64,000 nt of DNA, taken from a virus. The DNA is taken from UHGV virus genome UHGV-0312702. One strand, written 5' to 3'. This document shows, one piece after another, positions 12,341 to 64,000 of this stretch (its first letter is position 1; each line of letters starts with the position of its first letter). A program made the position numbers and the translations under genes. The notes under the pieces were generated by a model that saw only the letters and a program-made list of their open reading frames with translations, was not told where the DNA came from and searched no databases.

Positions 12341-12722
12341 GTTGACTAGGTAGCCTCTTCGGAGGCTCCTTTTTAAAAGGTCTTTAAACAGGGTCTTTTA
12401 ATGAGGTATGGTGAGGTGTTGTATGGTAGTGTCTGGTCCGGTAGGGTGAGGTTCGGTCCGGTAGGGTCTGGTATGGGTAGTTAATCGGAGCTACATAAAA
12501 ATTCGATTACATCACTTAAGAGTCTTTTAAAAGGGTTTTTAAGTGTTGTGAGGTGATGTACGGTCGGGTATGGCTATGTCTTGTATGGTTTGGTATGGAA
12601 GGATGGCAGTAGCCTTATAAAAAATCTGCCAAATAAGCTATAAAATCTGTTGACAAGTCAGGTGTTATAGCTTATTTTTATACTCAATGCAATACAAAAT
12701 TTAATATAACTTTGAGGTCATT
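12341..12722. repeat. noncoding GT-rich region B (paralog of region A, modules rearranged)
   Basis: 5-nt periodic tracts approx 12405-12480 and 12549-12610; same boxes and hairpin as region A. Confidence 0.6.
12650..12678 (+). promoter_or_regulatory. putative sigma70-like promoter
   Basis: TTGACA at 12650-12655, 17-nt spacer, TATTTT; duplicated TATAAAA(A)TCTG boxes upstream. Confidence 0.4.
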
Positions 12723-55532: not shown

Positions 55533-55560
55533 AGCCTCCTTAATCGGGGGCTTTTTAATT
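55533..55560 (+). terminator. intrinsic terminator ending the plus-strand block
   Basis: AGCCTCC-ttaatc-GGGGGCT followed by TTTTTAATTTTT. Confidence 0.65.
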
Positions 55561-57115
55561 TTTATAAAATTTTATCGGTTGTCCCAACCTCTGGGTCACC
55601 ATCATATGTGAACAAAATATCTACCCTCTTAATAACCTTCTTAATCTTACTCTCTATATAGTTATATAGTACTATATAGTATCTTAGTACCTATCTAGTG
55701 GTTTTAATAGCCCCTCTGTATAGCCCTTCTAAACACTCTTCTAACAAGCCTTTTTAACAACCTATACAATCACCTTAACCACCTCTCTATACACTCTTAG
55801 AAGCTCCTATACACATCTTAATCTCTATGTCAGCTATGATACCCTCTATAGGTGTTCACTAGGTATTACTAAGCCTCTATATAGACTGTTTTAACAAACT
55901 TAACAGGAATATCTTCACAGACCTTATCTCACAAGGTCTAACACGGTACTAACAAGGTATCTTATAAGCCTGTTTCTACCTGTATTTTTAAAAGACTGTC
56001 TAGGTAATTATTCAGAATTTTAAAATTTTTATAAAATAGGACTATCAAGTCATTTTTTAGGGTCTTTGAAGGAACTGAAAAATATCTGTCTAGGATGTAT
56101 ATCTGCTTGGTAGCCCTTAACATCCCTGTAACATCCCCTTTGCAGAATTTTAAAATATCCTTAACAATCTCTTAACAGCTCTTACATCTTCTTAACATCT
56201 CTTCAGAGGTCTTAACAGATTCTTAACAGAACTAACAAGGATGTAACAAGTTCTTAACAGTCGATACATAGGCTTTACAGAGTCTTAACAGATGACTAAC
56301 AAGAGCTAACAAGTTAATTTTTAAGAGTTATTTTGTTAAGATAATTAACAAGTTTCTAACAAGTGTTTAATCTTTTTAACAAGCTATTAACATGGTCACT
56401 ACTCTTTTCTTATCGTTCCCTCTACCTTCTTAGTGATTCTCTAAACATACCTCTTAAAAGCTCTCTATAGCTACTTATAAGCCCTTTTAAGCCTCTTCCT
56501 AGTAACTACACCCCAACTATACAGACACCTATTTATAGAGCTTTACAGGAGCTTTTAAGGCTATGCCAAAGGTTCTTACAAGTCTTTTACGTGGTCTTAA
56601 CAGAGATTTAACAAGGGGCTAACAAGTTGCTAACAAGTGCCTTAAAAGCATAACTATGTAGGGATTGTTAAGAAATTGTTAAGAAAATGTTAAGGGGGCT
56701 AGCATTTACGTAACTTTATAGCCTCTTTTACGTAACTTTTAAGCTACTTCAGAGTAACTTTATAGCCCCTATAACATACTTTTTAGTGACTATCAAGGGG
56801 ATTGTTTAACTATTCACAAGATACTAACGAGATAATAAAGCTCATAACCTTATAAGATTCTTTTAAGCCTCTATAAAGCCCTGTAAAGAGCTTTTAAGGG
56901 TGAGTTAATGCAATCCCTTAAGTTAGATTGATAAGGCTGTTATAGCGCTTTATAGAGCGTTTAAACGGTTGCCCTTCCCTTTCGGGTTATGGGCTTATAT
57001 TTAAGTTGATTTGATAAGGGGCTATAGAGTAAGCTATAGAGTTATTACTTTTAAGGTATGAGATAGATTCTATCGAATCAGTGGGAAAGATTCTGGGAAG
57101 GGATTGGATAGACGT
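55561..57115. repeat. 1.6 kb noncoding iteron-rich region
   Basis: no ORF of 60 aa or more; dense short repeats (TCTTAACAG, CTAACAAG, TTGTTAAG inverted copies, TATAGCC/TTAAGCC families), densest approx 56150-56340 and 56590-56700. Confidence 0.6.
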
Positions 57116-57170
57116 AAAAAAGCCCCTATAAGAAGGAGCTTTTCAGGTATCTGGGGCTATTTAGCCCCGT
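57115..57170 (-). terminator. terminator hairpins after the small-gene array
   Basis: GGGGCT-AAAT-AGCCCC and downstream GGGGCT + TTTTTT on minus strand. Confidence 0.5.
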
Positions 57171-57178
57171 TGCGTCGA

Positions 57179-57427
57179 TTAGTTGTAACCTTGTTTGCTG
57201 TAGTATAGGGAGACGATTTTTTCTCCCCAGTAGTGGTAGTGATATTCCTCGTTTATGGCTTCTTTTACAGCATCCTTCCAAAAGTCATCGGTAGGGTTAT
57301 AATCTGGTAGCACCTGCTGAATCAGCATTTTGATAAGGTCAAAGGTGTTATCTGTGCCACCGATATCGAATTTTGCATCAAGTTCGTGGCAGCCATAAGC
57401 ATTAACAGTTACGCGGATAGTTGACAT
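57179..57427 (-). CDS. hypothetical small protein
   Basis: 82 aa behind conserved cassette. Confidence 0.5.
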   Translation of the reverse strand: MSTIRVTVNAYGCHELDAKFDIGGTDNTFDLIKMLIQQVLPDYNPTDDFWKDAVKEAINEEYHYHYWGEKIVSLYYSKQGYN

Positions 57428-57494
57428 AATTTAGATTCTCCAGTTTAGGACTTTATTTAGTGGGAAGGTTAATCCCTCCCCGTTGATTAGTAAT
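57428..57494 (-). promoter_or_regulatory. conserved upstream cassette, type B
   Basis: GGGGAGGG...CCCC hairpin, CACTAAAT box, GGAGA RBS. Confidence 0.55.
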
Positions 57495-57758
57495 TTACTG
57501 CATGTTGGCGTATGTTGCAAGCCTTTTTTCGTTGTATTTTGTCAGAATCTCACAAGATAAAACATCATATTTTGTAACCGCTTTGCCTTTGTCGAGGTCA
57601 AAGAATCCGAACGCTTTACCGTCTTTGAATCCGACAACCTCGTAAGACTCTTTGATGATTTCACCATTGAACAAATCACTTTCGATACGGTGGAATAGTG
57701 CTACATCCTCTTTGTCGGATGCAATTTGTAAAAGTGTGGTCAGTTCGACGTGTTCCAT
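57495..57758 (-). CDS. hypothetical small protein
   Basis: 87 aa behind cassette. Confidence 0.5.
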   Translation of the reverse strand: MEHVELTTLLQIASDKEDVALFHRIESDLFNGEIIKESYEVVGFKDGKAFGFFDLDKGKAVTKYDVLSCEILTKYNEKRLATYANMQ

Positions 57759-57819
57759 TTTGAATCTCCAGTTTAGGATTTTATTTAGTGGGGGAGGTCA
57801 TCCCCCGTTGATTGACAAT
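57759..57819 (-). promoter_or_regulatory. conserved upstream cassette, type B
   Basis: GGGGGATGACCTCCCCC hairpin + CACTAAAT + GGAGAT. Confidence 0.55.
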
Positions 57820-58350
57820 TTACAGATTTTTGATTGTCTCGTCAATATCTTTTTCAATATCTTTTAAAGTTTTTTCTAAGTTCTTGATATTAAACGTTAA
57901 ACCTTCACCGAGAGTCTTAGAATAACCGCTAGGACGTAAACCATATAGCTCGATTTCTTCCACTTCAAAGAGGTTAACAGTCCAACCGCCTACGCCATAG
58001 GCTGAAGCAACAGTATTTGCAGGTGCGTTGTAAAACTTGTTCAAATTATGAATAGAACGTTCATAAGCCATTTTATAGCTATTTAAAAGGTTTTTAACGT
58101 GGCTGTGAACGTTTTTACACTCATCTAAGTAAAGACCTAAAAACATCGGGAGAAGTTCCGCGACAGCTTGCATAAAGTGAGAGACTACCACGGTTGCAAC
58201 ATTACGACGATGAACGTAATAAGCCCCGTTTCCTGATTTGGTAATGGTTGCAAAGTGTACCCCATTACAACGGAATTCATAGGTATCTTTAACAGGCTTA
58301 GACATTACATTATTTGAACGAATATAGTTGATAGCTTTGAACTTGTTCAT
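57820..58350 (-). CDS. hypothetical protein
   Basis: 176 aa behind cassette. Confidence 0.5.
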   Translation of the reverse strand: MNKFKAINYIRSNNVMSKPVKDTYEFRCNGVHFATITKSGNGAYYVHRRNVATVVVSHFMQAVAELLPMFLGLYLDECKNVHSHVKNLLNSYKMAYERSIHNLNKFYNAPANTVASAYGVGGWTVNLFEVEEIELYGLRPSGYSKTLGEGLTFNIKNLEKTLKDIEKDIDETIKNL

Positions 58351-58430
58351 TTTAGAATCTCCTAGTTTAAGGACTTTATTTAGTGGGGAAGGTCATTCCC
58401 TCCCCGTTGATTAGTAATTTACTTGTTTTG
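58351..58430 (-). promoter_or_regulatory. conserved upstream cassette, type B
   Basis: GGGGAGGGAATGACCTTCCCC hairpin + CACTAAATAAAG + GGAGAT. Confidence 0.55.
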
Positions 58431-58573
58431 ATAGTTGATTGCAAGCAATTTTTTAAGTTTATCTATAAAGAATCTTTTAAGTAAATCCCTTTTAGATAAA
58501 CCCCCTCGAACAAATGTACTATTGTCAAGGGGTATCGTCAAGTAATTTTTTAAAGTTTTTTGTAAGTTATTGA

Positions 58574-58915
58574 TTAACTGATGAATATTTTTTCAGGTTT
58601 TACATAGCTGATACGCTGGCTTTTTAGCAGGTCATCCCAGATTAGCGCGGCAATATGAGAATAACCGGATTCACGTAAGAGCTTCATTGCTTTACTTCTC
58701 GTTTCAAAACGGCTTGCGTAGTACTCGCTATTCAGTGTCGTTTTATTCCCTTCGTTATCTGTATGGATGATTTGCATCACTTGAAAGGGGCTGACATCCT
58801 CGCCTTTGTTCCACTGCTCAAAGTATTTTAGGCACTGCATAGGTGACATCTTATCACTGACTTGAGTTGACCAAGATGAATCTTCTTTATTGGTAATTAC
58901 AGTTACATAAGCCAT
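58574..58915 (-). CDS. hypothetical protein
   Basis: start set at ATG after cassette RBS; track start 58981 reads through the cassette. Confidence 0.5.
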   Translation of the reverse strand: MAYVTVITNKEDSSWSTQVSDKMSPMQCLKYFEQWNKGEDVSPFQVMQIIHTDNEGNKTTLNSEYYASRFETRSKAMKLLRESGYSHIAALIWDDLLKSQRISYVKPEKIFIS

Positions 58916-58990
58916 TTTAGAATCTCCTAGTTTAAGGACTTTATTTAGTAGGGAGGTTATTGCCTCCCCGTTGATTGGCAATTTACAGAC
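58916..58990 (-). promoter_or_regulatory. conserved upstream cassette, type B
   Basis: GGGGAGGCAATAACCTCCC hairpin + CTAAATAAAG + GGAGAT. Confidence 0.55.
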
Positions 58991-59005
58991 TTTTATCAGG
59001 CTTGT

Positions 59006-59239
59006 CTAGTCTTTTTCAATGATAATTTCATATTGACCATCGACACTGTCAAAATAGACGCCGTCTTCATCTTCTGTCTTAAAGTAGCATTGAATATCAT
59101 CACTGGCGGGATAGTCTTGTCTTGCTATCTGGCAAACTTGAATAGCATTTTCTTTACTCCCTGTAAACTCCTCAAGCCCTTTAAAATCACATGAATGACC
59201 ATTACAAATAGAAAGGATAAGATAAACGGTTGTAAGCAT
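59006..59239 (-). CDS. small secreted Cys-containing protein
   Basis: hydrophobic N-terminus MLTTVYLILSICNG; no canonical cassette upstream. Confidence 0.45.
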   Translation of the reverse strand: MLTTVYLILSICNGHSCDFKGLEEFTGSKENAIQVCQIARQDYPASDDIQCYFKTEDEDGVYFDSVDGQYEIIIEKD

Positions 59240-59302
59240 GATTTAAGCCCTTTAAATGGCCCTGTATGGGCCTTAAGTTGGAAGTTGGTGTCTTTGTACT
59301 GA

Positions 59303-59866
59303 TTAACCTAAAAAGTCTTTTAAATTGCGCTCTGTGATGTTTGCCGTGATTTTATCCAGCAAGTCACAAAACACGGAACTATCACCGCTATTCTGTACAA
59401 TTTTCGCCATACTTAACAAATCATCGTCAACATAGCCTAAATTGCGGTTAGTTGCATCTGGTACAAAGAAAGGTGCATACATCGCACTAAATTTCGTCGA
59501 GTGAAGGCCAATAATCCAATTTTTATCAAAGTGTCCGGTAAAGCTGGCGATATCGCTCATGTTGTCACAAGAATAATCATCCTCTAGCTCTTCCTCTGGG
59601 ATATCCATCTCAATGACAATTACGTCCTGCGTTTCCATTTGGAAAGCTGCCGTAATAAGCCCAGATTCTAAAGCGTTTTGAATGCAGCGTTCACGAATGT
59701 AAGAATCTTCCTCATCTTCCAGACATTCCGTTTTGATAATCTTGTTCATTGGGTAAACGTAGAAACAATCATCCATGTAGGAGCAGTTCCAGATTCCTTC
59801 TGGCTTGTCACCACCATTCAGCAAGTTTACAAAGTTTTTGAGGGTAGTGCCGTGATAGCATTTCAT
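59303..59866 (-). CDS. hypothetical protein, possible H-Y-E type ADP-ribosyltransferase
   Basis: N-terminal CYHGT motif followed by YVY; weak motif-level evidence only. Confidence 0.3.
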   Translation of the reverse strand: MKCYHGTTLKNFVNLLNGGDKPEGIWNCSYMDDCFYVYPMNKIIKTECLEDEEDSYIRERCIQNALESGLITAAFQMETQDVIVIEMDIPEEELEDDYSCDNMSDIASFTGHFDKNWIIGLHSTKFSAMYAPFFVPDATNRNLGYVDDDLLSMAKIVQNSGDSSVFCDLLDKITANITERNLKDFLG

Positions 59867-59951
59867 TTTTGAATCTCCAGTTTAGGATTTAGTGGTAAAG
59901 CTCTTTATCTGGGGCTTAAGATATCAACTTTTAAGCCCCCTGTAAAGTACT
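59867..59951 (-). promoter_or_regulatory. conserved upstream cassette, type A
   Basis: GGGGCTTAA-aagttgatatc-TTAAGCCCC hairpin + CCACTAAATCCTAAACTGGAGAT. Confidence 0.55.
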
Positions 59952-60200
59952 TTATTTAACTTTCTTTGAGAAAATTAGTTTAACTGCAACCGTAGGAATC
60001 TCGTCAGCGCTTGTAACCAGCATTACTTTTTGGGTAACCAACTTATAACCGTTCTTTGCAGCATATGCGGTAAAACGGTTAACATTGTAACTATAAGTTT
60101 TTGGTGTGCTATCTGGCATGTGGTAAAGAAAAGGTTTACCCAAATTTTCTTCTTGTGTCAACAGTCGGCAGGTATCAGGGATATTGAAATAGTTCATCAT
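59952..60200 (-). CDS. hypothetical small protein
   Basis: 82 aa behind cassette. Confidence 0.5.
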   Translation of the reverse strand: MMNYFNIPDTCRLLTQEENLGKPFLYHMPDSTPKTYSYNVNRFTAYAAKNGYKLVTQKVMLVTSADEIPTVAVKLIFSKKVK

Positions 60201-60292
60201 TTTTGAATCTCCAGTTTAGGATTTAGTGGTAAAGCTCTTTATCTGGGGCTTAAGATATCAACTTTTAAGCCCCCTGTAAAGTACTTTATCAG
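60201..60292 (-). promoter_or_regulatory. conserved upstream cassette, type A
   Basis: identical to 59867-59951 element. Confidence 0.55.
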
Positions 60293-60490
60293 TTATTTTT
60301 TGACAACTTTTAAAACTGCAAGATAACCTAAGCAATAAGAATCACCGAAGAGAGTTCTGCCCATGAAAGAATCCTCTTTGATATCCTTTGCAGTGACAGT
60401 TTTTTCTACGCCGTGGGAAAGGACTACATCACCGACTTTGATGTCTTTGATGTGTGTTGTTTCAATGGTTAAGCCGTTAATAATAGCCAT
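60293..60490 (-). CDS. hypothetical small protein
   Basis: 65 aa behind cassette. Confidence 0.5.
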   Translation of the reverse strand: MAIINGLTIETTHIKDIKVGDVVLSHGVEKTVTAKDIKEDSFMGRTLFGDSYCLGYLAVLKVVKK

Positions 60491-60593
60491 TTTAAAATCT
60501 CCTAGTTTAAGGACTTTATTTAGTGGGGAAGGTCATTCCCTCCCCGTTGATGTGTAATTTAGCCTATCTAAAAATCAGTGTCAATAATTTTTT
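60491..60593 (-). promoter_or_regulatory. conserved upstream cassette, type B, with extension
   Basis: type B hairpin plus GATGTGTAATTTAGCCTATCTAAAAATCAGTGTCAA block repeated at 61542-61630. Confidence 0.55.
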
Positions 60594-60998
60594 TTAGAGT
60601 TCTGCGTAAATTGCATCACAGATATTACGGAAGTCATGATTTGACAAATTACGTTGTAACCAAGTGGCGAAGAAATCAGCGATTGCAAAATTAGCATCAT
60701 ACTCGACAGATAGCCACACTTTAACAGCAAATCGGAACATTTTCAAGTCTAACTCTTTATTCATTACCTTAGATTTGCCTAACATGTCGGACATCTCATA
60801 TTGTGCACCGTCTAGCGTGATACCTGCTGCAACGTCAGACAATGAGTTTTTTACGTTTTCAACGTCTAAGATAACACTTTGAATCTTCCCGATAATGTTG
60901 TGCAATGTTTCATCCGGTGCTGATGATGTAATAACATTAATCCGGTTAACGGTCAAACGTGCTTTTAAAATTGATAACTCACGGTTATTAATAGCCAT
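60594..60998 (-). CDS. hypothetical protein
   Basis: 134 aa behind cassette. Confidence 0.5.
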   Translation of the reverse strand: MAINNRELSILKARLTVNRINVITSSAPDETLHNIIGKIQSVILDVENVKNSLSDVAAGITLDGAQYEMSDMLGKSKVMNKELDLKMFRFAVKVWLSVEYDANFAIADFFATWLQRNLSNHDFRNICDAIYAEL

Positions 60999-61084
60999 TT
61001 TTTAGTTCTCCAATTTAGGATTTAGTGGTAAAGCTCTTTATCTGGGGCTTACTTTATCGAACTATAAGCCCCTTGTAAAGTACT
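60999..61084 (-). promoter_or_regulatory. conserved upstream cassette, type A variant
   Basis: stem GGGGCTTA/TAAGCCCC kept, loop sequence differs. Confidence 0.5.
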
Positions 61085-61357
61085 TTATACTAAATGCAGC
61101 TTTTTACCTTTTACTATGATGTAACTAGATGCGCTATTGCTGCATACATCTTGGTAAATTCTGCGCAAACGCCCTTCATAGTGTACTTTCCAACTGGTTG
61201 GAATCTTTTTCCCGTATCCTGTAGCAGTTTTTTGGAGTCCTGCAACTTGCCAATCCAAAATGTGCTGTTCAGCTTGTAAATCCTCGAAGTGCATTACACC
61301 GTTCACATAGTGGCGTAGGGTTACGTTTAAAGTGCGACCGTTGTTAGTAGTGTACAT
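61085..61357 (-). CDS. hypothetical protein
   Basis: start set at ATG 61357 (MYTTNNGR) behind RBS AAGAG. Confidence 0.45.
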   Translation of the reverse strand: MYTTNNGRTLNVTLRHYVNGVMHFEDLQAEQHILDWQVAGLQKTATGYGKKIPTSWKVHYEGRLRRIYQDVCSNSASSYIIVKGKKLHLV

Positions 61358-61382
61358 TTTAAAAGCTCTTAGTTTAAGGGTT

Positions 61383-61541
61383 TTATTTTGACAGTTCACT
61401 AATTAAGACATCAAAGATTATATCATTATCTGCTACAGTTGCAACACCAGTGATATAATCAATTTCTAGGATAACAACAACTTTCGTACATAAACCGTCA
61501 TCTATATCATTCCAGACAACTTTATCACCTGCACAAAACAT
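61383..61541 (-). CDS. small hypothetical protein (52 aa)
   Basis: ORF below track cutoff, preceded by canonical cassette and GGAGAT RBS. Confidence 0.45.
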   Translation of the reverse strand: MFCAGDKVVWNDIDDGLCTKVVVILEIDYITGVATVADNDIIFDVLISELSK

Positions 61542-61630
61542 TTTCAGAATCTCCAGTTTAGGACTTTATTTAGTGGGGAAGGTCATTCCCTCCCCGTTGA
61601 TGTGTAATTTAGCCTATCTAAAAATCAGTG
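61542..61630 (-). promoter_or_regulatory. conserved upstream cassette, type B, with extension
   Basis: near-identical to 60491-60593. Confidence 0.55.
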
Positions 61631-61963
61631 TCAAACACTTTGTTTTCGTTTGCTCAATTCTTGAACAATTACAGCGTAGTAGTCTTTTAAGTCACTGATA
61701 TTTAAAGCATTTATTAGTGAATTATAATCATCGACTAACTGAAAATCATCTTTGAAGATGTCACTTATCTGATAGGTGTTAGCTTTGTATCTGAAGCTCA
61801 TTTCTAACCGTTTTATTTGTTCATCACTTAAACGCTCCAGAAAACTCATTACAAGGCTATTATTGACCTGTTGCGTGATTGCCTTACTTGCCAGATTGTA
61901 GGCGCTGTACGCCTTATATAGCGCCATAATAGCAATGATTGCAGTGACTCCCATCATTAACAT
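61631..61963 (-). CDS. small membrane protein
   Basis: N-terminal TM MLMMGVTAIIAIMALY; coupled to upstream gene, no cassette. Confidence 0.5.
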   Translation of the reverse strand: MLMMGVTAIIAIMALYKAYSAYNLASKAITQQVNNSLVMSFLERLSDEQIKRLEMSFRYKANTYQISDIFKDDFQLVDDYNSLINALNISDLKDYYAVIVQELSKRKQSV

Positions 61964-62253
61964 GGTGTTACCTCTTTACGTGACACTTTGCCATTTACAG
62001 ATATCTCATAAGATTCTAATAAATCACTTTTAGACTTTACTGGACTTTTAAAAGTATCATCATAAATATTAACTTGCAATACAGGTTTTTTATACTCCCT
62101 GCAACTGTTCCATAAACAAATCACTACACGACGGCCTTTTATTTTGCCGTGTAACCATTCCATAACATCATGACTATTCCTTGATGTTTCAATGAAATCA
62201 ATTTTATTAAGTAACTTGCTTAGATTTTCACGAACTTTATTTGATAATTTCAT
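61957..62253 (-). CDS. hypothetical small protein
   Basis: 98 aa behind cassette. Confidence 0.5.
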   Translation of the reverse strand: MKLSNKVRENLSKLLNKIDFIETSRNSHDVMEWLHGKIKGRRVVICLWNSCREYKKPVLQVNIYDDTFKSPVKSKSDLLESYEISVNGKVSRKEVTPC

Positions 62254-62346
62254 TTTAGAATCTCCTAGTTTAAGGGCTTTATTTTGATAAATCTTTTTAT
62301 CTGGGGCTATCCTACCAGCTTGATAACCCCGTGTAAAGAAATCTAT
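62254..62346 (-). promoter_or_regulatory. conserved upstream cassette, type A variant
   Basis: GGGGTTATCAAGCTGGTAGGATAGCCCC hairpin variant + RBS. Confidence 0.5.
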
Positions 62347-62859
62347 TTAGTTCTTAAAGATATTCATCACTGAGTCTTTCAACGATTCCAAACGTTCTAA
62401 TACTTCAGTTTCTGCGTCTGAATTGCTCACCTCTTCTTTTAGTCTATCCTCTAAATCATCACCGTCACGATAGCACCAATCGAAAGCATAACCAAGATAA
62501 AAACTTTCTAAAACCGTGTTACCGTTTGCATCCACAACTTTCGCGGCAAGGTTGTACTCTGAAGCCTCTAAATCTCTTTCTAGTTCTTTCTGTAAGCTGG
62601 TGTAAGCCTCTTTTGATGGATTTTCCCGACCTTGTTTTGCATAGTCACTAGAAAGCTGTTTAAGGCTGTAATGTAAAGGGATTGCATATTTAAACTCATT
62701 ATGCTGATGGTTAGGATTTTTAATAGTTACACCGCCTTGATGGTCATCTGTAAACTGCCAATTATCAAGGTTATGGCTTGCTTCAAAGCAATTAACAGCC
62801 TCATAGATGATAGAAAATTTTTCTTTTACAACTTCAAAGGTAGCGTCTACAGTTTTCAT
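62347..62859 (-). CDS. hypothetical protein
   Basis: 170 aa behind cassette. Confidence 0.5.
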   Translation of the reverse strand: MKTVDATFEVVKEKFSIIYEAVNCFEASHNLDNWQFTDDHQGGVTIKNPNHQHNEFKYAIPLHYSLKQLSSDYAKQGRENPSKEAYTSLQKELERDLEASEYNLAAKVVDANGNTVLESFYLGYAFDWCYRDGDDLEDRLKEEVSNSDAETEVLERLESLKDSVMNIFKN

Positions 62860-62947
62860 TTTTGAATCTCCAGTTTAGGATTTAGTGGTAAAGCTCTTTA
62901 TCTGGGGCTTAAGATATCAACTTTTAAGCCCCCTGTAAAGTACTTTA
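62860..62947 (-). promoter_or_regulatory. conserved upstream cassette, type A
   Basis: identical to 59867-59951 element. Confidence 0.55.
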
Positions 62948-63205
62948 TCAGATTAAATTGCCAGTTAATGATAAGTGCATTTTATAGCCTTTTTTGGTAA
63001 AAACGTTCACTTTACCTAGTGTTTTTACACCTTTAAAAAGGTTGTTTGAACTGCGTTTTAAAGTTAACTGCTTATCAACCTTCACGCCCCACCTTACAGC
63101 AGATTGTTTCCCGTTGTCAATCACTTTACCGCATAACTTTTTAGCCATGTTGCGAGCGTCATCACGAGTCTTTGCAGTAATTACAACGTTTTTGATAATA
63201 GCCAT
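62948..63205 (-). CDS. hypothetical small basic protein
   Basis: start set at ATG 63205 (MAIIKN) behind cassette RBS. Confidence 0.45.
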   Translation of the reverse strand: MAIIKNVVITAKTRDDARNMAKKLCGKVIDNGKQSAVRWGVKVDKQLTLKRSSNNLFKGVKTLGKVNVFTKKGYKMHLSLTGNLI

Positions 63206-63291
63206 TTTTAAGTTCTCCAATTTAGGATTGAGTGGTAAAGTTCTTTATCTGGGGCTTACTTTATCGAACTATAAGCCCCTTGTAAAGTACT
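63206..63291 (-). promoter_or_regulatory. conserved upstream cassette, type A variant
   Basis: same variant as 60999-61084. Confidence 0.5.
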
Positions 63292-63672
63292 TTATTTAAT
63301 TTTGAAAATTGTTACATAACCATCACTACCGATTATTTGAGACACTCCAGCTTTTTCTACTTGATAGCCCATATTTTCAAGATGATAAACAGCATCATCA
63401 TAACCATATGCGCCGCCTTGATAACGTCTCTTATCACATCTTACTAATACCTTTCCACGTCCAGCAAGTGCATTCAGTACAGCTTTTTCACTTGAGAGTG
63501 TGCCATCTAACATGGTTGCCGTGTAATGGTTGATTCTATTCCCGTTAATATCATACTTAAAATTGAATGCGTGAACAACAATCAATTTGCCGTTAAATTT
63601 TTCATCAAGTGACTTCTCCAGTGCGTTGCGGAAGTTGTCTTTGTTGATGAATTTTGGTGCACGATAAGCCAT
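63292..63672 (-). CDS. hypothetical protein
   Basis: 126 aa behind cassette. Confidence 0.5.
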   Translation of the reverse strand: MAYRAPKFINKDNFRNALEKSLDEKFNGKLIVVHAFNFKYDINGNRINHYTATMLDGTLSSEKAVLNALAGRGKVLVRCDKRRYQGGAYGYDDAVYHLENMGYQVEKAGVSQIIGSDGYVTIFKIK

Positions 63673-63761
63673 TTTGAATCTCCTAGTTTAAGGGTTAATT
63701 TAGTAAAGCTCTTTATCTGGGGCTTAAGATATCAGCTTTTAAGCCCCCTGTAAAGTACTTT
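63673..63761 (-). promoter_or_regulatory. conserved upstream cassette, type A
   Basis: GGGGCTTAAAAGCTGATATCTTAAGCCCC hairpin + RBS. Confidence 0.55.
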
Positions 63762-63968
63762 TTATTTATCGTAGTAGTAAATTGCTGTCTGTCTTGTAAA
63801 CTTCTTAGTGTTTATTGTAAGGTAGCAATTAGAATTAATAGCCGTTTCTACATAGTTGCAATAGTCAGCTTCTGAAATTCTACGCCATGCGCCGCACACT
63901 TGCATGTAAAAACGTTTTACATTTGTATTAACGTTGGTTGTAACCATCAATTCACGACTGTAAAGCAT
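63762..63968 (-). CDS. hypothetical small protein
   Basis: 68 aa behind cassette; next cassette truncated by window end. Confidence 0.45.
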   Translation of the reverse strand: MLYSRELMVTTNVNTNVKRFYMQVCGAWRRISEADYCNYVETAINSNCYLTINTKKFTRQTAIYYYDK

Positions 63969-64000
63969 TTTTGATTCTCCAGTTTAGGAAGTGGGCTTGA

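Follow-up and report, generated by a model that had tools for sequence, protein, structure and literature searches.

Putative promoter and stem-loop cassettes precede the small genes of a Felix O1-like phage

What is a repeated hairpin doing in front of nearly every small gene in one part of a phage genome? The question is raised by UHGV virus genome UHGV-0312702, from which we analysed a stretch of 64,000 nucleotides (the window). Between 57.4 and 64.0 kb it carries an array of short minus-strand open reading frames (ORFs) preceded by copies of a cassette that combines a hairpin, a conserved leader and a ribosome-binding site (RBS). We find that every cassette also contains a predicted sigma-70 promoter, a feature not noticed in a preliminary description of this DNA. 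We propose that each cassette is probably a self-contained early-gene module for the host sigma-70 RNA polymerase, consisting of promoter, GC-rich stem-loop and leader, and that the repeats may also drive the gain and loss of the small genes.

Megablast of positions 57000-64000 returned 257 phage records and places the window in Felixounavirus (Felix O1-like myoviruses), the top match being 92% identical across 96% of the query. Almost all of the records are Felixounavirus phages of Escherichia, Salmonella, Shigella and Citrobacter, and all fall within Ounavirinae (Felixounavirus, Suspvirus, Mooglevirus and Kolesnikvirus). The array comprises 17 co-oriented minus-strand ORFs of 52-187 aa, equivalent to Felix O1 ORF15-23 and positioned downstream of the block that runs from rIIA/rIIB to the phosphatase; 16 of the 17 match PHROGs families of unknown function and one has no match. 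Spacers between the ORFs measure 61-103 nt, with one exception of 223 nt. In several cassettes the stop codon of the upstream ORF lies within or next to the promoter, and the -35 or -10 hexamer often overlaps that stop codon or the 3' end of the ORF. For comparison we used the window with 11 other Felixounavirus genomes, plus one genome each from Kolesnikvirus (Erwinia phage phiEa104), Mooglevirus and Suspvirus.

How regular is the array? The shared motif CCT(T)AAA[CT]T(A)GGAGA, searched as CCT{1,2}AAA[CT]T[AG]?GGAGA on both strands of the whole 64-kb window, gave 14 matches, each of them on the minus strand and within 57437-63988; the rest of the window has no match on either strand. A degenerate copy (TAAACTAAGAG) lies at 61366-61376. 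This bears out the preliminary count of about 14 cassettes confined to the small minus-strand ORFs, and with a cassette in front of 14 of the 17 ORFs the statement that nearly every small gene has one also holds. The remaining three are ORF 61631-61963, whose start overlaps the upstream ORF, ORF 61085-61357, whose cassette is reduced to a 25-nt remnant, and ORF 59006-59239, which has its own, different hairpin. Both of the hairpin types described earlier are present, type A (GGGGCTTA...TAAGCCCC, then AGATAAAG) in seven copies and type B (CAAC-GGGGAGGG-AATGA-CCTTCCCC) in six. The fourteenth cassette (63969-64000) is cut by the window end, and its relatives point to a third hairpin, GGGCaagcaaGCCC, here called type C. 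The full type C element, as seen in P54, skuden, pEP20 and Felix O1, consists of an AT-rich tract, TTGACT/TTGACA-N17-TA(G/A/C)TAT, ttgcatcaga and the CGGGCAAGCAAGCCC hairpin. Listed from the window end inwards, with SD for the Shine-Dalgarno sequence, the cassettes are as follows.

63969-64000, minus strand: the array's first cassette, type C, with only its 3' part inside the window (remnant of a GGGC..GCCC hairpin, CCTAAACTGGAGA, then ATG at 63968); its promoter lies beyond the window end.
63673-63754, minus strand: type A before ORF 63292-63672; -35 TTTACA 63749-63754, -10 TATCTT 63726-63731, hairpin 63719-63747, SD GGAG 63680-63683.
63206-63286, minus strand: type A before ORF 62948-63205; -35 63281-63286, -10 TAAAGT 63258-63263, hairpin 63251-63279, SD 63215-63218.
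62860-62939, minus strand: type A before ORF 62347-62859; -35 62934-62939, -10 TATCTT 62911-62916, hairpin 62904-62932, SD 62868-62871.
62254-62337, minus strand: type A with variant stem GGGGTTATC/GATAGCCCC before ORF 61957-62253; -35 62332-62337, -10 TAGGAT 62309-62314, hairpin 62303-62330, SD 62262-62265.
61542-61634, minus strand: type B before ORF 61383-61541; -35 TTGACA 61629-61634 (overlapping the upstream stop codon), -10 TAAATT 61606-61611, hairpin 61575-61595, SD 61551-61554.
61358-61382, minus strand: 25-nt remnant (CCTTAAACTAAGAG) before ORF 61085-61357, with neither promoter nor hairpin.
60999-61079, minus strand: type A before ORF 60594-60998; -35 61074-61079, -10 TAAAGT 61051-61056, hairpin 61044-61072, SD 61008-61011.
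60491-60584, minus strand: type B before ORF 60293-60490; -35 TTGACA 60579-60584, -10 TAAATT 60556-60561, hairpin 60525-60545, SD 60499-60502.
60201-60280, minus strand: type A before ORF 59952-60200; -35 60275-60280, -10 TATCTT 60252-60257, hairpin 60245-60273, SD 60209-60212.
59867-59946, minus strand: type A before ORF 59303-59866; -35 59941-59946, -10 TATCTT 59918-59923, hairpin 59911-59939, SD 59875-59878.
58916-59008, minus strand: type B before ORF 58574-58915; -35 TAGACA 59003-59008, -10 TAAATT 58980-58985, hairpin 58950-58969, SD 58924-58927.
58351-58444, minus strand: type B before ORF 57820-58350; -35 TTGCAA 58439-58444, -10 TAAATT 58416-58421, hairpin 58385-58405, SD 58359-58362.
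57759-57845, minus strand: type B before ORF 57495-57758; -35 TTGACG 57840-57845 (within the upstream ORF), -10 TAAATT 57817-57822 (containing the upstream stop codon), hairpin 57790-57806, SD 57766-57769.
57428-57520, minus strand: type B before ORF 57179-57427; -35 TTGCAA 57515-57520, -10 TAAATT 57492-57497, hairpin 57462-57481, SD 57438-57441.

TAAATTN4ATCAACGGG was observed 6 times, where shuffled sequence predicts 0.01, and TTTACA-N17-TAnnnT 10 times against a chance expectation of 1.8, with seven of the ten inside the array. The cassette repeats are real and non-random and, taken as predicted modules, functional.

What does the conserved part of a cassette encode? In all seven type A copies, TTTACA stands one base ahead of the stem and TAnnnT follows exactly 17 bp on, straddling the loop and the 3' arm. 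The 9-bp hairpin thus sits between these -35 and -10 hexamers and overlaps the last bases of the -10, which in the window reads TATCTT, TAAAGT or TAGGAT. The 22 unique type A cores show no change in TTTACA or in -10 positions 1, 2 and 6, in contrast to positions 3-5 and the rest of the loop, which vary; an 18-bp spacer was seen only in two type A variants, both from related phages. When the three further genera are included, there are 12 distinct type A -10 hexamers, all TAnnnT, and the promoter pattern is found in each of the 75 sequences that have the type A 3' flank and hairpin. The preliminary description had stated that in type A the stem is kept and the loop changes, and had read this as selection on structure. 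The stem is indeed under structural selection, as its compensatory changes indicate (see below), but the loop is not free, since it holds the invariant TA of the -10. The conservation of type A is therefore that of a predicted sigma-70 promoter, not of a free hairpin loop.

Each of the six type B copies has a -35 that resembles TTGACA (TTGACA, TTGCAA, TAGACA or TTGACG), then TAAATT 17 bp on and, after a further 10 nt (nnnnATCAAC), the hairpin. Over the window and the 11 Felixounavirus genomes, all 71 type B and C cassettes have the 17-bp spacer and 62 have TAAATT as the -10, with a fixed 10 nt between -10 and hairpin that reads nnnnATCAAC in type B and TTGCATCAGA in type C. A consensus promoter scan with a cut-off of 9 of 12 matches recovered every type A copy and four of the six type B copies, both TTGCAA copies falling under the cut-off.

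Applying the usual 7-9 nt between -10 and start, we predict that type A transcripts begin at the A of AGATAAAG right after the stem (63718, 63250, 62903, 62302, 61043, 60244 and 59910) and type B transcripts 2-3 nt ahead of the stem (about 61598, 60548, 58972, 58408, 57809 and 57484, each +/-2 nt). Felix O1 ORFs 16, 20, 21 and 22 peak at 5 min post infection as measured by reverse transcription PCR (Table 3 of PMC3185647), and according to the same paper Felix O1 encodes neither an RNA polymerase nor known specificity factors.

Type A transcripts are predicted to open with a 16-nt imperfect palindrome (e.g., 62286-62301, minus strand), GATAAA-N4-TTTA(C/T)C, which is perfect in the 62253 cassette and in copies of phiEa104 and SUSP2 and which might serve as an operator or fold into a weak, AU-rich hairpin at the 5' end. 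We also looked for other promoters in this leader. GCTTTA-N11-TAAACT resembles the MotA box and -10 of a T4-type middle promoter, and was rejected on two grounds: transcripts from it would begin within or past the SD and so have no RBS, and Felix O1 reportedly lacks MotA/AsiA-like factors (PMC3185647). Other placements read from the sequence were set aside as well, TTTACC...TAAACT for its 9-bp spacing, and AGATAA and TAAAGA as poor matches to a -35 hexamer.

If the hexamers make a promoter, is the stem more than a by-product? The preliminary description had suggested aligning the cassettes across related phages, and this alignment showed invariant promoter positions together with stems that stay paired through compensatory changes. 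The type A arms occur as 26 distinct pairs in which 97.9% of cells are paired, and both sides change at five of the nine pairs (GC/UA; CG/UG/UA; UA/AU; AU/UA; and five pair types at position 9). For covariation these arms score 0.442; shuffles give 0.150, with none of 500 reaching the observed value, and sliding the partners gives at most 0.082. These counts were made on the arms only, joined by a fixed linker, because MAFFT alignment of whole type A cores put the 62,253-type variant out of register. G.U pairs are common in type A stems and would be A.C mismatches on the opposite strand; they fit the sense strand only, which argues that selection acts on sense-strand RNA. In type B stems the variation is mainly between G-C and G.U, and every variant folds. 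Folding energies of the cassette stems range from -7 to -15 kcal/mol, and distant genera carry different hairpins at an unchanged distance from the -10. No Rfam family was matched, the sole match (E = 0.59) being far under the gathering threshold and inside an ORF. On these comparative grounds we consider the type A stems to be under structural selection.

Selection on RNA is what one would also expect if the array were transcribed as one long RNA from the first promoter, with the hairpins and AU-rich leader serving as processing sites for RNase E (or another nuclease) or as 3' stabilisers, and with the hexamers being incidental. Besides the G.U pairs and compensatory changes, such a role could explain the AU-rich single-stranded stretch after each stem and the presence of an orphan hairpin at the 3' end of the last gene (described below). 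It does not account for a -35 and -10 positions 1, 2 and 6 that are invariant over four genera at a spacing of 17-18 bp while their loop neighbours vary. An RNase III site calls for some 20 bp of double-stranded RNA, or about two turns of the helix, a length that the 8-9 bp stems do not reach. We therefore think processing unlikely as a replacement for promoter-bearing modules; as an added role it is compatible with them.

Downstream of the hairpins, the two promoter architectures share a leader of about 35 nt (CCACTAAAT...CCT(T)AAACT(A)GGAG), which ends in GGAG followed after 7-10 nt by ATG. Eleven of the 14 cassettes carry its first conserved element, box 1 (CCACTAAAT, or as a variant CCACTCAAT/CTACTAAAT). 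The second, box 2, had been given as a single sequence with a free (A/G) position. This is not what we find: in the window and loci L001-L011 it takes the linked forms CCTTAAACTAGGAG (67 copies) and CCTAAACTGGAG (51 copies) and a third variant, CCTAAATTGGAG (24 copies), and none of these copies has the mixed forms CCTTAAACTGGAG or CCTAAACTAGGAG. The single-base differences (an extra T, an extra A) are fully linked and symmetric around TAAACT, and together they would extend by one U-A pair a mini-hairpin, UCC(U)-UAAACU-(A)GGA, that pairs part of the SD. Of 13 predicted leaders, 11 form this mini-hairpin in their minimum free energy fold, and the remaining two have a partly paired SD. For genes of the array the SD is predicted to be unpaired with a median probability of 0.25, compared to 0.50 for other window genes (p = 0.001), although the array copies are paralogous and the test overstates their independence.

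Such a leader could be the site of a phage regulator. The leader (boxes 1 and 2 and the SD), the palindromic AGATAAAGAGCTTTA, or both would then be bound by an early repressor or by a RegA/RegB-like mRNA factor that turns the array off together. That the leader is conserved beyond the needs of promoter and SD, and is common to two unrelated promoter architectures, would fit this idea, as would the mini-hairpin, the low SD accessibility and the jointly added U-A pair; in Felix O1 the array genes differ in timing, with peaks at 5 min for some and at 25 min for others (PMC3185647). Against this, the candidate regulator is itself hypothetical, linkage between sites 6 nt apart is expected by ancestry alone, the mini-hairpin has just 3-4 bp, and the paralogy of the array copies weakens the accessibility test. 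A regulator site is thus a doubtful substitute for the promoter-module reading. One could speculate further, with similar reserve, that the leader is a two-role module kept across Ounavirinae, both an SD-sequestering site for a candidate phage factor and a recombinase-free, integron-like 'attachment' sequence. If so, the factor would switch the whole ORFan array off or on together, and the leader would let any promoter type join any incoming gene.

Could the hairpins instead be plain terminators behind each small gene, with the downstream repeat no more than a conserved RBS? The resemblance is real. Like intrinsic terminators, the cassettes have intergenic GC-rich stem-loops that are stable at -7 to -15 kcal/mol; type B hairpins carry WebGeSTer-based 'terminator' features in MZ726791 (phage ASO1A); and a stem-loop of the T4-like phage elements discussed below lowered downstream lacZ expression in vivo (PMC2839356). 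However, a two-strand scan of the window found no terminator-like hairpin with a T-run at any cassette, in agreement with the earlier observation that the hairpins lack a U-tract; the stems run into AGATAAAG or ACTAAATA instead. The same scan and our reading of the plus strand, also without a T-run, led us to reject a terminator on the opposite strand. In addition, the type B hairpin lies downstream of a promoter, 10 nt past the -10 at consensus spacing, where a terminator would abort the cassette's own transcript, and termination gives no reason why TTTACA and TA...T should surround the type A stem without variation. We regard plain terminators as quite improbable. Promoters for a phage-specific RNA polymerase or sigma factor, one of the functions offered in the preliminary description and one for which a repeated conserved sequence before many genes would be typical, are very improbable indeed: the cassettes do appear by sequence to be promoters, but the conserved positions in each copy are exactly the host sigma-70 -35 and -10 at 17 bp, Felix O1 reportedly lacks a polymerase or specificity factor (PMC3185647), and several array genes are expressed by 5 min.

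Do the repeats also shape the gene content of the array? The 12 phages keep their array genes in strictly collinear order, but 10 of the 19 array families occur in only some of them; the neighbouring block, which has no cassettes, hardly varies. When the window was compared with each relative by chained blastn, the alignment at most junctions broke off 0-5 nt past the start of an ORF and picked up again 3-6 nt short of its stop. The one cassette that the shorter genome has at such a place matches both cassettes flanking the ORF in the longer genome, with overlaps of 35-125 nt, and the gained or lost unit is therefore one ORF plus one cassette, bounded by direct repeats. We count about 11 distinct indel events, most of which remove one such unit; an exception is the loss of a 98-aa ORF in L27, where no cassette is at the junction. 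ORF 59952-60200 illustrates the arrangement, being flanked by 110-nt direct repeats that are 93% identical (cassettes 60201-60280 and 59867-59946).

When an upstream gene is missing, the downstream cassette switches type, from A to B before the 82-aa ORF in TH10 and from none to B before the 90-aa ORF (the equivalent of 61085-61357 in the window) in five phages. The 52-aa ORF at 61383-61541 (minus strand), which has no PHROG match, is present in 7 of the 12 phages and absent from 5. In phages without it, its type B cassette is fused directly to the next gene. The hybrid cassettes have their crossover between box 1 and the SD, that is, in the leader common to both types, and scars remain in DR094 (a half cassette against a full one) and VpaE1 (a duplicated box 2). 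The argument for recombination comes from the overlapping homology at the junctions, not from breakpoint position. The earlier suggestion that the repeats could shuffle small-gene cassettes is borne out by the gain and loss of ORF-plus-cassette units among relatives, and these junctions support a role for the cassette repeats in driving it in Felix O1-like phages.

We can now return to how a cassette might work. Host RNA polymerase would initiate at every cassette early in infection. In types B and C the predicted +1, 7-9 nt past TAAATT in type B, leaves 2-3 unpaired nt before the stem, and the mRNA would start with a 5'-terminal stem-loop. This could impede 5'-end-dependent decay by RppH and RNase E, given that a 5' hairpin stabilises bla mRNA and impedes RppH in E. 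coli (review PMC3997798). A type A stem precedes the +1 predicted for its own cassette and would therefore be present as RNA only in read-through transcripts from upstream units. There, by analogy with the PeSL stem-loops of RB49 and phi1, for which terminator activity was shown experimentally (PMC2839356), it would most likely act as an attenuator or 3' barrier insulating the units. The common leader would give a uniform translation start and, as a direct repeat, would supply homology for deletion, insertion and swapping of ORF-plus-cassette units, leading to the presence/absence differences among Felix O1-like phages. Whereas cassette anatomy, conservation, stem covariation and indel junctions can be read from the genomes, the hairpins' effects on RNA are our predictions.

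Several points weigh against this reading. We found no transcript-end data for Felix O1-like phages in the literature, and start sites and promoter activity are predictions. Much of the type A covariation comes from a few paralogue or genus lineages, so independent events are few. The missing U-tract means that canonical intrinsic termination at type A stems would be inefficient. Selection would purge ORF-breaking indels anyway, which makes breakpoints at gene borders weak evidence by themselves. Finally, the conservation of boxes 1 and 2 beyond promoter and SD need could reflect concerted evolution or a further function.

Among known systems, the closest are the promoter-early stem-loops (PeSLs) of the T4-like phages RB49, phi1, PST/T4 and nt-1/KVP40 (Arbiol et al. 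2010, PMC2839356; Comeau et al. 2014, PMC4122927). A PeSL combines a strong sigma-70-like promoter with a GGGG...CCCC stem-loop, extends from stop codon to SD/ATG, lies among ORFans and mediates indels (PMC2839356; PMC4122927). The cassettes likewise have a sigma-70-type promoter with a stem-loop between -35 and -10, over the -10 or just after it; they cluster in a plastic region of small ORFs of unknown function (14 copies at 57.4-64.0 kb, none in the other 57 kb); they span stop codon to SD/ATG; and indels between related phages end inside them. All features that define PeSLs at the sequence level are present, and only the T4-like host range, a matter of the scope of the original description and not of mechanism, is absent. 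There are also differences. The cassettes belong to Ounavirinae, have no sequence homology to PeSLs, and come in only two or three sharply defined architectures, all with one conserved leader of about 35 nt to which the crossovers map. Promoter and terminator activity and mini-circles have been shown for PeSLs, whereas the cassettes are known from sequence alone. With that qualification, the array is a PeSL-like system of predicted promoter, stem-loop and RBS in Ounavirinae.

Other parallels are partial. The type B/C hairpin, 2-3 nt past the predicted +1, has a geometry like that of the E. coli 5' stabilisers (ompA, papA and a hairpin placed on bla; PMC3997798), but the starts here are predicted and the analogy is inapplicable to type A, whose hairpin is upstream of its own predicted start. 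Lambdoid morons, each a gene equipped with a promoter and a terminator, are also small accessory genes with their own expression signals between other genes; they lack a conserved flanking repeat and are thought to be inserted through illegitimate recombination, whereas here the units are co-oriented and the cassettes appear to be the recombination substrate. Integron cassettes, too, are co-oriented, variably present single-gene units separated by structured repeats. Unlike them, the array has no integrase, attC or single common promoter; each unit has its own predicted promoter, and exchange is apparently by general homologous recombination.

A few neighbouring features deserve mention. ORF 59006-59239, which lacks a cassette, is preceded at 59240-59302 (minus strand) by a hairpin, GGCCC-ataca-GGGCC, just before its weak SD. 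The counterparts in Moogle and SUSP2 read GCCCC-gca(c/t)a-GGGGC, a compensatory change that suggests a separate conserved RNA structure. The unusually long spacer of 223 nt, at 58351-58573 (minus strand), contains an extra promoter-like TTGACG-17-TACATT (58513-58541) upstream of its type B cassette. The array itself ends with two hairpins.

57148-57172, minus strand: orphan hairpin of hybrid type, CAAC-GGGGCTAAATAGCCCC-AGATA, located past the last ORF and followed by no gene.
57116-57139, minus strand: hairpin GCTCC-N8-GGGGC followed by T6, the array end; read from the sequence and missing from the terminator scan list.

Felix O1 has its terminator t23 (12345-12368, Table 2 of PMC3185647) in the same place as the 57116-57139 hairpin, after the last array ORF. 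The orphan hairpin joins a type B 5' flank to a type A 3' flank, directly precedes the array terminator, and is kept in Citrobacter phage Moogle and phage SUSP2. Beyond lies a 1.5-kb gap without ORFs (55560-57100) between two convergent transcription units. It contains dense short repeats phased at about 10-11 nt (TCTTAACAG, CTAACAAG and TTGTTAAGAA) and three 22-nt GTAACTTTATAGCC units, and several GenBank records of related phages were opened in or beside its counterpart; it may be a replication origin or packaging end. Lastly, phage vB_EcoM_P54 (PV390658, locus L002) is listed in GenBank under Straboviridae/Tequatrovirus, yet is 92% identical here and has the Felix O1 gene order, and is probably misclassified.

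Our literature search found no earlier description of such cassettes and no transcriptome or start-site map for Felix O1-like phages, only a direct-repeat list and generic promoter/terminator counts; a PhageMaP study of Bas63 and a paper on ICP1 had no bearing on the cassettes. Repeats of 57 bp and 39 bp appear as 'direct repeats', with no interpretation, in the genome paper on Felix O1 from 2010 (PMC3185647), and GenBank MZ726791 labels type B as a 'promoter' and then a 'terminator', an order that is hard to make sense of; the cassettes described here would account for both. Typing and biocontrol of Salmonella and E. coli make use of Felix O1-like phages, which are now also being engineered. 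The cassettes mark points at which genes could be removed or inserted with expression signals intact, and we predict that engineered inserts flanked by cassettes would be lost through recombination. Being early and variable and having no known function, the small array ORFs probably serve in host takeover or anti-defence. PeSL-type cassettes had been described only from T4-like phages, and their occurrence in the subfamily of Felix O1 as well suggests that large virulent phages have converged on a general solution.

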